IMG/VR virus record: IMGVR_UViG_2740892230_000023
Strand: one strand, 5' to 3'
Length of the DNA: 6,751 bases
From: a virus
Taxonomy: Duplodnaviria > Heunggongvirae > Uroviricota > Caudoviricetes
Below are positions 1,185 through 6,416 of this stretch, in pieces. The notes beneath the pieces were generated by a model. The model was not told the DNA's origin. It saw nothing but the letters and a program-made list of their open reading frames with translations, and did not search any database. How positions within the stretch are numbered: the first letter of the stretch is position 1; each line of letters opens with the position of its first letter. Both the position numbers and the translations under genes were made by a program.

Positions 1185-1859
1185 TTAGGCCTTTATTATG
1201 TATCTTCTTGGTTTTCCTGAGAAAATCACTGTACCAATTATAGAGCAATTACCGTTAATCTTAATGTAAGGCTCAGGCCAGTTTGGGTTTAATGCTTTGA
1301 GATAACGCTGTGTTCCATCTTCTATCAACCGCTTGAAGGTGGTTTCGCCTGAATCGTGCATCAATGCAATAACGTCGTCACCGTGGCAGGCAGGGACTTC
1401 AGGATCTACAAAAATCATGTCTCCCGGGCGGTACTCATCAATCATTGAATCACCAATCACCCGCAAGATATAAGTCATTTCGCCACAGGGTACAGGGCAG
1501 GGATAAGTTTCTGCTGTGCTCAAATCAACCTCAGAATAGCCAACTTCTTTCCATGCTCCGGCCTGTACCCATGATATGACAGGGACTAACGTTATTTGTT
1601 TGTTAGTAATTGAAACATCAGGTTTTTTTGTGATGTTTGTTGTCTGGTGTTCTTGATCAAGCCATCCGACAGGCAGGTCGAAACATTTTTCGATGTGCCG
1701 TGCCATGCTGTCACCGATATTTTTAGTAGCACCATCTCCCATAAACCTGCTGGTCTGGGTTGGCTCGCGATCAATCATGGTGGCAAAGGAAGAATTCCCG
1801 CCAACACCATCTCTCAGTTTTCTGGCGTTAGACCGCCGGATGTCATGGATTGTTTTCAT
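1185..1859 (-). CDS. cI: CI-type prophage repressor, N-terminal HTH domain plus C-terminal S24 (LexA/UmuD-like) autopeptidase domain
   Basis: 224-aa ORF. C-terminal half (LVPVISWVQAGAW...GDSM...VDPEVP...TFKRL...ALNPNWPEPYIKINGNCSIIG) resembles the cleavage domain of P22 C2 / lambda CI, including the Ser (GDSM) and Lys (FKRL) dyad. Divergent from a cro-like gene across a short operator region. Confidence 0.9.
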   Translation of the reverse strand: MKTIHDIRRSNARKLRDGVGGNSSFATMIDREPTQTSRFMGDGATKNIGDSMARHIEKCFDLPVGWLDQEHQTTNITKKPDVSITNKQITLVPVISWVQAGAWKEVGYSEVDLSTAETYPCPVPCGEMTYILRVIGDSMIDEYRPGDMIFVDPEVPACHGDDVIALMHDSGETTFKRLIEDGTQRYLKALNPNWPEPYIKINGNCSIIGTVIFSGKPRRYIIKA

Positions 1860-1949
1860 AACGAAATTAAAACCTTTGTACCGATAAGGTACAAGTATCT
1901 TGAAGGTTCATTTCAATCATGTAATATGTATATCGGAGGTACATATTGT
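1860..1949. promoter_or_regulatory. Divergent immunity control region (oR with pR/pRM equivalents) between cI and cro
   Basis: 90-bp intergenic region between divergent repressor genes. Palindrome TTGTACC-N5-GGTACAA at 1876-1894; candidate pR -35 TTGAAG (1900-1905) and -10 TAATAT (1922-1927); GGAGG RBS at 1935-1939 before the cro ATG at 1950; cI start codon at 1857-1859. Confidence 0.55.
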
Positions 1950-2150
1950 ATGAAAGCGTATTGGGACTCTTTAACCAAAGAACAGCAGGGCGAGTTGGCC
2001 GGAAAAGTTGGCTCAACACCTGGCTACTTACGGCTGGTTTTCAATGGTTATAAAAAAGCCAGTTTTGTGCTGGCGAAAAAACTTGAGCAATGCACGTCAG
2101 GTGCAATTACGAAATCTGACTTAAGACCGGATATCTATCCGAAAGATTAA
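1950..2150 (+). CDS. cro: Cro-like small DNA-binding regulator (Cro/YdaS family)
   Basis: 66 aa, MKAYWDSLTKEQQGELAGKVGSTPGYLRLVFNGYKKASFVLAKKLEQCTSGAITKSDLRPDIYPKD. RBS GGAGG 10 nt upstream; position opposite cI. The track ORF 1647-2150 is a spurious upstream extension antisense to cI. Confidence 0.8.
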   Translation: MKAYWDSLTKEQQGELAGKVGSTPGYLRLVFNGYKKASFVLAKKLEQCTSGAITKSDLRPDIYPKD

Positions 2151-2181
2151 CAGAACACCTTCAATTTTTAACCACAGAACG

Positions 2182-2751
2182 ATGAGGCTAACCGTGGGTA
2201 AGTATCACTGGAAAGTAGAAAAACAGCCTGAGTGGTACGTGAAAGCTGTCAGAAAAACTATCGCGGCGTTGCCGGGGGGTTACGCTGAAGCTGCTGAGTG
2301 GCTGGATGTAACAGAGAACGCTTTATTCAACCGCCTTCGTGCAGATGGCGATCAGATTTTCCCGCTGGGATGGGCAATGGTTTTACAGCGCGCGGCTGGC
2401 ACTCACTACATTGCGGATGCTGTCGCACAGTCTGCTGGTGGGGTGTTCGTATCGCTTCCTGAAATTGAGGAAGTAGAGAACGCCGATATAAACCAGCGCC
2501 TGCTGGAAGTCATCGAACAGATCGGGAATTACTCAAAGCAGATTCGTTCGGCAATCGAAGATGGGGTCGTGGAGCCACACGAGCAGACAGCAATTAATGA
2601 TGAGTTGTATCTGTCAATTTCGAAGCTCCAAGAGCATGCAGCACTGGTCTACAAAATCTTTTGCGCTCCAGAAAAGAGTGACGCCCGCGAGTGTGCAGCT
2701 CCGGGCGTCGTGGCGTCGATTGCTTCTGGTTGTGGAGAAACTAACGCATGA
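2182..2751 (+). CDS. CII-like / YdaT-like early regulatory protein (family assignment tentative)
   Basis: 189-aa ORF directly downstream of the cro-like gene, the position taken by cII in lambda and ydaT in Rac-type prophages. Start may be ATG 2182 or GTG 2194 (GAGG upstream). Stop overlaps the next ATG (ATGA at 2748-2751). Confidence 0.6.
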
Positions 2752-3086
2752 ACAGTTTAACAACACACTACCGTCGCTCGCAACTGATTGCGCTTCCTGT
2801 ACCGGGTGGAAAAGCGAAGGTGGAGTATTGCTATGCAGTGAATGTACCAGGTGACAGGGAAATTGTAACCCACAGCTTTGCAGAGTGGGCTGTGGGTGAT
2901 TTCAACCGGCAGAAGGAGACAGTCCTTTGCGACAAGTTAACCGCTGGTTCAAAGATCACTACGGAGTGCCCGTCAGAGTCATTCGTTGGGAGCCGGAAAC
3001 ACAACGGGTTATCTACCTCCGTGAAGGCTATGAACATGAATGCTTCAGTCCGCTCGAACAGTTTCGTCGTAAATTCAGGGAAATAG
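2748..3086 (+). CDS. Small hypothetical protein; only the N-terminal ~60 codons look coding, the 3' part overlaps ORF 2927-3139 in another frame
   Basis: ATG overlaps the upstream stop (ATGA coupling). The first ~60 codons have ordinary composition; the remainder is Ser-rich with rare codons, like an out-of-frame read of the overlapping gene. Confidence 0.35.
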
Positions 3087-3139
3087 AGGTCGGTCATGAG
3101 CCTGTTAATGACATCCCAGCCCATTGTGATAAATCGTGA
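2927..3139 (+). CDS. Small conserved prophage protein (about 70 aa), TTG start with strong SD
   Basis: AGGAG at 2914-2918, 8 nt before TTG 2927. Translation ...[54 protein letters not shown]... has protein-like composition. Overlaps the start of the O-like gene by 44 nt. Confidence 0.6.
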
Positions 3140-4088
3140 TCTTGCATGCCGTATTGGTCTGAATGAGGCAATTGTGTTGCAGCAGCTTCATTACTGGCTG
3201 AATGAAACGAATTCAGGCACTGAGCATGGCGGAATTCGCTGGGTTTATAACACGACAGAACAGTGGCTGGAGCAGTTTCCGTTCTGGTCAGAGTCCACTC
3301 TGAAACGCACATTTGCAAGCCTGAAATCACTTGGGGTTTTGCGTCGCGAGCAACTCAATAAATCGAAGCGTGACATGACCAACTTCTACACGATCAACTA
3401 TGAAAGTGAGCTTTTAGAAGAGGTCAAAGTGAACGAATCCATCAGGTCAAAATGCACTTCTCCATCGGGTCAAAGTGACCTGATGGATGGGCGCAAAATG
3501 ATACGATCCATTGGTTCAAAACGACACGCTGTCATCGGGTCAAAATGGCCCAATGATCTTACAGAGAATACAACAGAGATTACTACAGAGAATAAAACCT
3601 CTTCTCGTCCGGACGCTTCGCAACCGGACACGCAAACGGCTGAACAGGAGTTTTTAACTCGCCATCCTGATGCGGTTGTATTCAGCCCTAAAAAGCGCCA
3701 GTGGGGAACGCAGGATGATTTGACCTGCGCACAGTGGCTCTGGAAAAAAATCATCGCCCTGTACGAGCAGGCCGCCGAATGTGACGGCGAGGTGGTTCGT
3801 CCCAAAGAACCGAACTGGACAGCATGGGCAAACGAAATTCGCCTGATGTGTGTGCAGGATGGTCGTACTCACAAACAAATCTGCGAGATGTACAGCCGCG
3901 TCAGCCGCGATCCGTTCTGGTGCCGTAACGTGCTCAGCCCGTCGAAGTTGCGGGAAAAATGGGATGAGCTTTCCCTGCGCTTATCGCCGTCCGTCAGCAC
4001 GCACACAGAAAAACGTGAAGACCCGTACTTCAAAGCCAGTTACGACAACGTGGACTACAGCCAGATCCCGGCAGGATTCAGGGGGTGA
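3096..4088 (+). CDS. Replication initiator / replisome organiser (lambda O-like N-terminal region, origin-containing linker, DnaT-like C-terminal domain)
   Basis: 330 aa; RBS GAGG 8 nt before ATG 3096. The central region carries iterons at the DNA level. The C-terminus ...YSQIPAGFRG closely resembles the C-terminal end of E. coli primosomal protein DnaT (...SQIPPGFRG, recalled from memory). Confidence 0.85.
   Translation: MSLLMTSQPIVINRDLACRIGLNEAIVLQQLHYWLNETNSGTEHGGIRWVYNTTEQWLEQFPFWSESTLKRTFASLKSLGVLRREQLNKSKRDMTNFYTINYESELLEEVKVNESIRSKCTSPSGQSDLMDGRKMIRSIGSKRHAVIGSKWPNDLTENTTEITTENKTSSRPDASQPDTQTAEQEFLTRHPDAVVFSPKKRQWGTQDDLTCAQWLWKKIIALYEQAAECDGEVVRPKEPNWTAWANEIRLMCVQDGRTHKQICEMYSRVSRDPFWCRNVLSPSKLREKWDELSLRLSPSVSTHTEKREDPYFKASYDNVDYSQIPAGFRG
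3419..3600. repeat. Iteron-type origin of replication inside the initiator gene: 5-6 iterons (core GGTCAAARTG, about 23-bp spacing) then an A-rich tract with three 12-bp ACAGAGA repeats
   Basis: Cores at 3422, 3445, 3468, a degenerate copy at about 3491, 3513 and 3538; ACAGAGA at 3561, 3573 and 3585. Same layout as ori-lambda inside gene O. Confidence 0.6.
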
Positions 4089-4579: not shown

Positions 4580-4607
4580 TGAGTAATAAATATTGCCNNN
4601 NNNNNNN

Positions 4608-4691: not shown

Positions 4692-5496
4692 ATGAGTAAT
4701 AAATATTGCCAGGCGCTGGTAGAACTGCGGAACAAACCAGCCCATGAACTGAAGGAAGTGGGCGATCAGTGGCGCACGCCGGACAACATTTTCTGGGGAA
4801 TTAACACCCTGTTTGGCCCGTTTGTTCTGGATCTGTTCACCGACGGTGATAACGCCAAATGCGCTGCGTATTACACGGCGGAAGACAACGCGCTGGCGCA
4901 TGACTGGTCAGAACGCCTTGCGGAGCTTAAAGGTGCTGCCTTTGGAAATCCCCCATACAGCCGCGCCAGTCAGCATGAGGGGCAATACATCACCGGCATG
5001 CGTTACATCATGAAGCATGCCAGTGCCATGCGTGATAAGGGCGGGCGCTATGTTTTCCTGATCAAAGCTGCCACCAGCGAAGTGTGGTGGCCGGAAGATG
5101 CAGATCATATTGCTTTTATTCGCGGGCGTATTGGTTTTGAACTGCCTGCCTGGTTTATCCCGAAGGATGAGAAGCAGGTGCCGACAGGCGCTTTCTTCGC
5201 TGGTGCTATTGCTGTTTTCGACAAGACCTGGAAGGGACCGGCAATCAGCTATATCGGGCGCGATGAACTTGAGGCATGTGGTGAGGCGTNNNNNNNNNNT
5301 CTGGTTTATCCCGAAAGACGAGAAGCAGGTACCGACAGGAGCTTTTTTCGCTGGTGCTATTGCTGTTTTTGACAAGACCTGGAAGGGACCGGCAATCAGC
5401 TACATTGGGCGCGATGAACTTGAGGCATGTGGTGAGGCGTTTCTGGCGCAGGTTCGCCTGCAGGCAGAACGGCTGGTCAGGGAGATAGTGGCATGA
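4692..5496 (+). CDS. Phage Dam-family DNA N6-adenine methyltransferase (orphan methyltransferase); coordinates inflated by an N gap and a 141-bp allelic overlap
   Basis: WRTP and NPPY motifs and overall resemblance to lambdoid/Stx-phage Dam methylases. N run at 5290-5299; 5300-5440 duplicates 5149-5289. Track ORF 5098-5496 is the same frame after the gap. Stop overlaps the rusA-type ATG (ATGA at 5493-5496). Confidence 0.85.
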
Positions 5497-5526: not shown

Positions 5527-5563
5527 NNNNNNNNNNGGAAAAGCTGGTCAGGGAGATGGCGGC

Positions 5564-5890
5564 ATGACGACGTTAACTCAATGCCAGCAGCAGGTGCTGG
5601 ATATGCTGATTTCTTATCAGAAAGAGCGTGGCTTCCCGCCAACCAATCAGGAGGTGGCAACCATGCTGGGATACCGTTCGGTGAATGCAGCGGTGGAGCA
5701 TCTTCGCGCACTGGAGAAAAAAGGCGTCATCACGATAAAGCGTGGTGTGGCCCGGGGGATCACGCTTCATACCGCGGTGAAGGACGACGACAGCGAGGCG
5801 GTCGGGATTATCCGCTCACTGCTTGCCGGTGAGGAAAACGCAAGGCTGCGTGCAACCCACTGGTTACATGAGAGGGGCCTGAAAGTATGA
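5564..5890 (+). CDS. LexA-like DNA-binding-domain-only protein (no S24 peptidase domain)
   Basis: 108 aa. First ~75 aa (LTQCQQQVLDMLISYQKERGFPPTNQEVATMLGYRSVNAAVEHLRALEKKGVITIKRGVARGITL) align to the E. coli LexA N-terminal winged-helix domain, followed by a ~35-aa unrelated tail. RBS GGAG 8 nt upstream; stop overlaps the rusA ATG (ATGA at 5887-5890). Confidence 0.8.
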   Translation: MTTLTQCQQQVLDMLISYQKERGFPPTNQEVATMLGYRSVNAAVEHLRALEKKGVITIKRGVARGITLHTAVKDDDSEAVGIIRSLLAGEENARLRATHWLHERGLKV

Positions 5891-5986
5891 AGCTGATCCT
5901 GCCTTTTCCGCCCAGCGTGAACACGTACTGGCGACACCCCAACAAAGGGGCGTTTGCAGGTAAGAGCCTGATAAGCTCGGCGGGGC
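5887..5986 (+). other. rusA: Allelic 5' fragment of rusA (contig end before N run 5987-5996); 5997-6026 then repeats the LexA-like 3' end
   Basis: Near-identical to 6027-6126 with a few substitutions. Confidence 0.6.
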
Positions 5987-6026
5987 NNNNNNNNNNTCAC
6001 TGGTTACATGAGAGAGGCCTGAAAGT

Positions 6027-6416
6027 ATGAAGCTGATCCTGCCTTTCCCGCCCAGCGTGAACACCTACTGGCGACACCCCAACAAAGGGGCATTTGCTGG
6101 TAAGAGCCTGATAAGCGCGGCGGGGCGAAAATTTCAGAGCGCGGCGTGCGCAGCAATAGTTGAGCAGTTACGTCGTCTGCCAAAACCAACGTCGGCACCT
6201 GCTTCAGTGGAGATCGTGTTGTTTCCTCCGGATAACCGGATCCGCGATCTGGACAACTATAACAAGGCGCTGTTTGACGCCCTGACCCACGCGGGTGTGT
6301 GGGAAGACGACAGTCAGGTGAAAAGAATGCTGGTGGAGTGGGGACCGGTTATCCCGAAAGGGAAGGTCGAGATCACTATCAGTAAGTATGAGAAACCGGC
6401 GGGTGCAGCCGCCTGA
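6027..6416 (+). CDS. rusA: RusA Holliday-junction resolvase (crossover junction endodeoxyribonuclease)
   Basis: 129 aa; shares LPxPPSxNxYxRH, RDLDNxxKAxFDALTxAGxWxDDxQV and C-terminal motifs with E. coli RusA. Confidence 0.9.
   Translation: MKLILPFPPSVNTYWRHPNKGAFAGKSLISAAGRKFQSAACAAIVEQLRRLPKPTSAPASVEIVLFPPDNRIRDLDNYNKALFDALTHAGVWEDDSQVKRMLVEWGPVIPKGKVEITISKYEKPAGAAA

Follow-up and report, generated by a model that had tools for sequence, protein, structure and literature searches.

Selection and a conserved layout point to two out-of-frame overlapping genes, ymfM and a nested DUF4222 gene, in an e14-like lambdoid prophage

The IMG/VR virus record IMGVR_UViG_2740892230_000023 is a stretch of 6,751 nucleotides (nt), referred to here as the window. 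Two small open reading frames (ORFs), 2748-3086 and 2927-3139, lie on its plus strand between a CII-like gene, ymfL, and a replication initiator gene. The original prediction offered two explanations, either two overlapping genes or one gene split by a frameshift. Our reading of the sequence is that these are probably two genuine genes that overlap out of frame within the early-right operon of a lambdoid, e14-like prophage, the first, ymfM, being chained to its neighbours and the second, a DUF4222 gene, being nested within it with a start of its own. We take the pair for a conserved out-of-frame overlap, and not for a gene broken by a frameshift or, probably, for an anonymous moron.

The first ORF (2748-3086, 112 amino acids (aa)) is the homologue of K-12 b1148, with 108 of 112 residues identical, and it matches PHROG 1170 over residues 1-112 (E 1.2e-69). 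Its assignment to YmfM follows from the full-length similarity to the K-12 protein and from its position between ymfL and the initiator, with a start that overlaps the ymfL stop. The ribosome-binding region (2734-2751) consists of GGAG at 2734-2737, a spacer of 10 nt and the ATGA at 2748-2751, where the ymfM ATG (2748-2750) overlaps the ymfL TGA (2749-2751), which is the ATGA noted earlier for this ORF. At its other end (junction 3084-3098), the TAG stop at 3084-3086 overlaps a GAGG element at 3086-3089 and is followed, after a gap of 9 nt and in the same frame, by the initiator ATG at 3096.

The second ORF (2927-3139, 70 aa) matches the Pfam family DUF4222 (PF13973) over residues 2-53 with 66.5 bits (cut-off 27, E 1.5e-18) and also PHROG 1343, and its size and prophage context are typical of the family. 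Its translation start (2913-2929) has AAGGAG at 2913-2918, a spacer of 8 nt and TTG at 2927-2929, in agreement with the strong Shine-Dalgarno sequence and TTG start described before, and PGAP of NCBI uses the same start codon. The stop, TGA at 3137-3139, lies 44 nt inside the initiator gene, the extent of overlap that had been stated originally. As the two starts are 0 (ymfM) and 2 (DUF4222) modulo 3, DUF4222 is in the -1 frame relative to ymfM and the two share 160 nt (2927-3086). We divide the YmfM protein accordingly into a core (residues 1-60, 2748-2926) and a tail (residues 61-112, 2927-3083), the latter being encoded in the +1 frame of DUF4222.

Polymorphism, divergence and codon usage were used to determine the selected frame. 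In a polymorphism set of 40 distinct E. coli-type sequences, 2748-2926 carries 23 variants; read in the ymfM frame, 18 of them are synonymous and the other 5, all rare, are non-synonymous. From 2927 to 3083 there are 15 variants, 14 of which alter YmfM but leave the DUF4222 protein unchanged. The four base differences that separate the window from K-12 in the overlap give four YmfM residue changes and no DUF4222 change.

Divergence was expressed as the ratio of non-synonymous to synonymous substitution rates (dN/dS), using medians between six deep lineages. For the first segment the ymfM frame has a ratio of 0.44 and the five remaining frames 0.7-1.5, and stop codons summed over the six lineages number 0 in the ymfM frame and 5-24 in the others. 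For the second segment it is 0.06 in the DUF4222 frame (dS approximately 1.6) against 1.76 in the ymfM frame, a value in keeping with a frame under no constraint of its own, so that the shared stretch does not carry amino-acid constraint on both frames. Synonymous change in DUF4222 is not depressed, its dS of approximately 1.6 comparing with approximately 0.74 in the ymfM core. Codon-usage scoring of both frames, as had been proposed, favours ymfM before 2927 and DUF4222 after it: the log-odds per codon over 2748-2926 are +0.22 for ymfM and -0.5 and -1.0 for the two remaining frames, and over 2927-3086 they are +0.14 in the DUF4222 frame against -0.03 in the ymfM frame.

The selected frame thus switches sharply at approximately position 2927. 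DUF4222 is clearly a real gene. The YmfM core is a real coding region under moderate constraint and the only part of ymfM under selection at the amino-acid level, while the residues of the tail show no such constraint and only stop codons are kept out of it. The earlier remark on a non-coding appearance of the first ORF beyond about 2930 is borne out for amino-acid selection and for codon usage. An antisense ORF of 97 aa on the minus strand (2831-3124), which spans DUF4222 and stays open in each of the 10 lineages tested, was rejected as a gene; its dN/dS is 1.7, an open frame is expected in 30-50% of cases given the protein, and the openness comes in part from the same avoidance of TTA and CTA that keeps the ymfM frame open, making it most likely a by-product.

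The layout was compared in 74 distinct sequences from 12 divergent lineages, taken from genomes and viral contigs and including Escherichia, Citrobacter, Raoultella, Atlantibacter and Phytobacter. In 12 lineages the offset from the start of the ymfM-like ORF to that of DUF4222 is 176 or 179 nt (2 modulo 3), the ymfM-like ORF has 108-114 aa, and the motif GTGGAGA..ACTAACGC-ATG-A is kept at the ymfM start. The DUF4222 start codon is ATG in all non-e14 lineages and TTG only in the e14 type, and is usually preceded by a GGAG/GAGG-like element. The DUF4222 protein itself is strongly conserved, with 59-72 residues, and is annotated as stand-alone products of 59-75 aa; in every context examined it lies inside a ymfM-like ORF, between the CP76 (CII-like) gene and the replication gene. 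In the shared stretch the lineages are more than one synonymous substitution per site apart, and the same layout at this distance means that the two-frame arrangement is old and maintained rather than a recent lesion. In the comparison with homologues that had been suggested, the same frame offset recurs in every related lineage examined. Both frames bear marks of selection and the layout is kept across genera, which supports the first of the two original options, that of overlapping genes.

The N-terminal part of the ymfM-like ORF occurs in at least three very different types (L036 2334-2660, L094 1834-2160, L096 1822-2160 and L099 1834-2166), two of which read ...NNRLPQLRGIPVHG...FRYERMVSGRW... 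and ...NRLRPAKQFRCLPLVGK..., respectively. The ORFs of these four loci begin with MNSL, run through DUF4222 in its +1 frame and stop just 5' of the replication gene. In two further loci, from an Atlantibacter metagenome-assembled genome (L009 2501-2728) and from Entomohabitans (L010 2501-2737), the YmfM core is present and DUF4222 is absent; ymfM has 75-78 aa there and ends at the start of the replication gene by ATGA or by an 11-nt overlap. From these loci DUF4222 appears as either an optional insert in a ymfM-like ORF or a gene that has been deleted from one.

Whether the ymfM frame is kept open across DUF4222 was assessed by simulation, in which the DUF4222 protein of each lineage was held fixed and random synonymous codons were drawn. 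The chance of an open ymfM frame across the shared stretch is 0.02-0.10 per lineage, and in an empirical control the +1 frame was open in 15% of 53-codon windows from real genes of the same loci. The ymfM frame is open in 73 of the 74 distinct sequences and in all deep lineages, that is, beyond chance, and the third frame has 1-5 stops per lineage. Furthermore, a Val or Leu codon that precedes a codon beginning with A would create TAA or TGA in the ymfM frame if it ended in A or G. At such positions the third base is A or G in 0 of 33 cases and toggles between T and C only; before C or T, where the change is harmless, 10 of 26 codons end in G (Fisher test, p = 8e-5). The long ymfM ORF is probably not an accident.

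The end of the frame is equally regular. In 11 lineages the ymfM stop (TAG or TAA), followed by AGG, lies 6-9 nt 5' of the replication-gene ATG, with 5-6 nt between AGG and ATG, and the junction is the same whether the replication gene is O-like, Phg_2220_C-containing, DnaD/HTH_36-like or of the K-12 type. Across these 11 lineages the replication gene always continues the reading frame of the ymfM-like ORF after a single stop codon and 2-3 further codons, which may reflect shared junction DNA. The ATGA at 2748-2751, together with a stop at 3084 that lies 9 nt before ATG 3096 and overlaps GAGG, suggests a translational chain from ymfL through ymfM to the initiator, and further suggests that the tail is kept open so that ribosomes terminate beside the initiator start.

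Several points weigh against two maintained genes in a translational chain. The lineages share ancestry, and the numbers for stop avoidance as well as their joint probability are for this reason approximate, a dependence that is eased by the saturation of synonymous sites (dS >= 1.3). We infer the chain itself from spacing only. Either gene can be lost: in L007 (Phytobacter sp. V91, 2680-2700) DUF4222 has a stop at codon 7 and the 113-aa ymfM frame is intact. The ymfM tail is dispensable in some genomes, as in L021 (2322-2513), the sole exception among the 74 sequences, where ymfM ends at residue 63 by the change T2938A (GTT to GTA), which is silent in DUF4222, and DUF4222 is intact; similar forms are frequent enough to have a PHROG of their own (phrog_20047). 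Finally, the P0084 lineage (44 contigs) has a single ORF that runs from a ymfL-coupled ATG into DUF4222. The 50 N-terminal residues of P0084 do not retain the YmfM core, and the lineage looks like a decay of ymfM, derived rather than ancestral.

An explanation in which only DUF4222 and a short gene for the YmfM core of about 60 residues are functional, the long tail being accidental and its openness without function, is unlikely in our judgement. The missing residue-level constraint (dN/dS 1.76), the predicted disorder, the truncated 63-aa forms and the 15% of control windows with an open +1 frame are all in its favour, as is the fact that PGAP does not call the ORF. Against it stand the low chance per lineage of a frame that is nevertheless found open almost throughout despite saturated sites, the avoidance of A and G before A-initial codons, and the constant position of the stop, 6-9 nt ahead of the initiator ATG whichever initiator family follows.

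Programmed -1 ribosomal frameshifting, which would yield a single protein from the YmfM core and DUF4222, is very improbable. It would fit the -1 relation of the frames and a change in selection from one frame to the other only a few codons from 2927, and T-TTC at 2900-2903 could permit a single-tRNA slip. An X-XXY-YYZ heptamer, however, is neither present nor conserved, and the DUF4222 frame is closed 3-27 nt 5' of its start in many lineages (3-6 nt in L007, L094 and L098). A start codon and a Shine-Dalgarno sequence are kept at the first DUF4222 codon, and the stand-alone annotations of DUF4222 likewise speak against a fused product. Predicted proteins joining both frames do occur in databases, but those found with the fusion protein as query are rare, differ in their junctions and are mostly singletons from raw-read assemblies; we rejected them as indels or assembly errors that do not represent an ancestral state.

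That an ancestral single gene was broken by a frameshift mutation, leaving a pseudogene, was the second option of the original prediction, and we give it hardly any credence. Two ORFs abut in different frames, and the single ORF of P0084 could be taken for the unbroken form, were it not that its N-terminus is without YmfM core sequence. The identical offset in 12 lineages with dS above 1, at saturated sites, the start and Shine-Dalgarno sequence that DUF4222 has of its own, the stops upstream of it and the purifying selection still acting on both parts argue against such a break, and the layout is present in the functional temperate phages SfII, SfIV, PhiR29 and mEp460 derivatives. The converse proposal, in which the 112-aa ymfM would be the sole real gene and DUF4222 a spurious family of out-of-frame ORFs, could appeal to K-12 and most deposited phage records, which annotate ymfM alone, but it is already refuted by the substitution pattern (dN/dS 0.06, 14 of 15 variants silent), besides a confident fold prediction and the conserved start codon and Shine-Dalgarno sequence.

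With two overlapping genes as the preferred reading, the following course of expression may be proposed. In the SOS response the LexA-like cI repressor would be inactivated and the operon transcribed. Ribosomes would move from ymfL to ymfM by way of the ATGA overlap, read ymfM across DUF4222, stop at TAGAGG and be able to re-initiate on the initiator gene. The tail would then be kept open to deliver ribosomes, or merely as a disordered tail, and not for its sequence. DUF4222 would be made in parallel by internal initiation at AAGGAG-N8-TTG and, going by its structural model, would fold as a small SH3/Tudor-like barrel, probably binding a partner from the host or the phage. The block of the Z-ring reported for ymfM would come from one of the products or from both.

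The AAGGAG of the 2913-2929 region can pair with CCUUUG, including the TTG start, as a small hairpin, and through this hairpin the initiation of DUF4222 might depend on translation of ymfM. None of the RNA folds at the three starts reached significance (z from -1.3 to +0.9), the larger fold at the DUF4222 start among them (z = -1.3).

For DUF4222, AlphaFold gives a five-strand barrel with a helix, with a predicted local distance difference test (pLDDT) score of approximately 90 in the core, so that purifying selection and a foldable product coincide in this frame. For YmfM the pLDDT averages 70-80 over residues 11-60 and falls below 50 for residues 68-112, and the tail is predicted to be disordered. 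No match was found in PDB by sequence, either for the YmfM alignment or for the DUF4222 alignment, and a structural search with the YmfM model gave no significant match. In a search against protein representatives, YmfM residues 19-52 (2802-2903) repeatedly match Listeria-Bacteroides repeat proteins (Pfam Flg_new, PF09479), and one large repeat protein, P0227, has 10 stretches matching these residues. A beta-rich, repeat-like fold of the YmfM core is a weak lead from these sequence matches.

The product of ymfM has been described as the SOS-inducible division inhibitor SfiC; the cloned ORF prevents Z-ring formation and causes filamentation independently of SulA, SlmA and MinC, and deletion of ymfM in a sulA mutant gives shorter SOS filaments (Ansari et al., bioRxiv 10.1101/2020.11.19.390815). 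Earlier screens yielded fragments spanning ymfL to ymfN. The pBAD-ymfM clone also includes most of the K-12 DUF4222 gene, namely its TTG, the Shine-Dalgarno sequence before it and 53 of 59 codons. Since the clone carries and the deletions remove both frames, the Z-ring phenotype could be due to either protein or both. It is conceivable, though we would hold it only tentatively, that the SOS-inducible division block ascribed to the 112-aa YmfM (SfiC) is caused wholly or partly by the nested DUF4222, and that the ymfM tail mainly serves to bring ribosomes to the start of the initiator; DUF4222 is by far the better conserved product of the two.

The window as a whole represents the immunity and early-right region of a lambdoid, e14-like E. 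coli prophage. At 2600-3300 its DNA is 99.9% identical to that of several strains, E. coli PMV-1 among them. Of 5426 complete E. coli genomes, 2713 have related DNA, which is also found in temperate phages such as mEp460_4F5, PhiR29, SfII and SfIV. The gene order begins with a cI-like repressor with an S24-peptidase (1185-1859, minus strand), followed by a cro-like gene, ymfL, ymfM with DUF4222 nested in it, the O-like initiator and a PerC-like gene; an adenine methyltransferase gene, a LexA-like gene and rusA come after the latter, in this order. The ymfL gene (2182-2751, plus strand) encodes a CII-like (Phage_CP76) regulator that matches NCBIfam NF041471 YmfL (E 1.1e-50), Pfam PF06892 (E 6.8e-15) and PHROG 101 (CII-like). 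The initiator (3096-4088, plus strand) matches PHROG 391, 'replication initiation O-like' (E 7e-102), and is a PGAP coding sequence with the same coordinates in E. coli PMV-1.

A search of the whole window against Rfam gave no match. For sigma-70-like promoters a simple, crude scan of 1800-3300 gave 0 hits where 1.7 would arise by chance, and its list has no coding-strand terminator-like site within 2748-3139. In K-12 an abundant cis-antisense small RNA, ECS003 (116 nt sequenced, approximately 70 nt on Northern blots), is reported to lie opposite the ymfL/ymfM junction and hence opposite the ymfM ribosome-binding site (PMC3175480). In the window the corresponding region is at approximately 2700-2800 on the minus strand, and the part of the junction that was aligned (2740 onwards) is identical to K-12; the region matched no Rfam family and the simple scan gave no promoter in it.

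The window contains eight runs of exactly 10 N, at 66-75, 248-257, 899-908, 1077-1086, 4598-4607, 5290-5299, 5527-5536 and 5987-5996. Most of them sit between direct duplicates that are 94-100% identical, examples being 5150-5289 and 5301-5440, 5858-5986 and 5998-6126, and 900-1076 and 1077-1252. The window has the look of a chain of variant alleles or assembly bubbles, and several ORFs outside 2748-3139 would consequently be artificial duplicates or truncations; 2748-3139 itself is free of these runs.

Each of the records inspected annotates just one of the pair and never both. PGAP calls DUF4222 only and leaves 2748-2926 empty, and in K-12 and the deposited phage records inspected the 112-aa ymfM is called and DUF4222 is not. 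The RefSeq name of K-12 b1148 is 'cell division inhibitor YmfM'. PHROGs has separate families for ymfM and for DUF4222, in addition to that for the 63-aa truncated YmfM. Because the current annotations are mutually exclusive, any analysis of the locus sees half of it. We found no literature on the ymfM/DUF4222 overlap or on any function of DUF4222; both families are already catalogued, and the nesting, the frame-specific selection and the ambiguity of YmfM/SfiC appear to be undescribed in the literature searched. In K-12, ymfM is listed as a division inhibitor and is used as a tool to obtain filamentous E. coli. Two proteins from one cloned fragment would change how the SfiC phenotype should be dissected, and DUF4222, a widespread family, gains a concrete phenotype to test.

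The closest known system is ymfM of K-12 (b1148), which shares with the gene of the window 108 of 112 residues, the position between ymfL and the initiator and the ATGA start. It differs in that all four residue differences fall in the tail and are silent in DUF4222, that published work treats ymfM as one 112-aa gene, and that K-12 has just an initiator remnant, fused to a terminase fragment, in place of the intact initiator of the window. The remark that small genes at this position in lambdoid phages are often morons of unknown function was half right: no function has been described for PF13973, but the first ORF is ymfM, published as SfiC, and the pair lies inside an operon with coupling signals.

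Kil (lambda, Rac), DicB (Qin) and CbtA are prophage division inhibitors (discussed in 10.1101/2020.11.19.390815) and share with YmfM that they are small prophage-encoded proteins blocking Z-ring assembly upon derepression. Beyond this likeness, no sequence or structural similarity to a solved protein was detected for the YmfM alignment, and none at the sequence level for DUF4222.

Nested or overlapping out-of-frame genes are found in phages such as lambda (Rz/Rz1) and phiX174. The ymfM/DUF4222 pair has in common with them a small gene nested out of frame with start signals of its own. Unlike in those systems, one frame of the shared stretch is constrained at its residues here and the other is just kept open. 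The locus is a clear case of a frame that is kept open without residue constraint, apparently placing its stop beside the start of the next gene.

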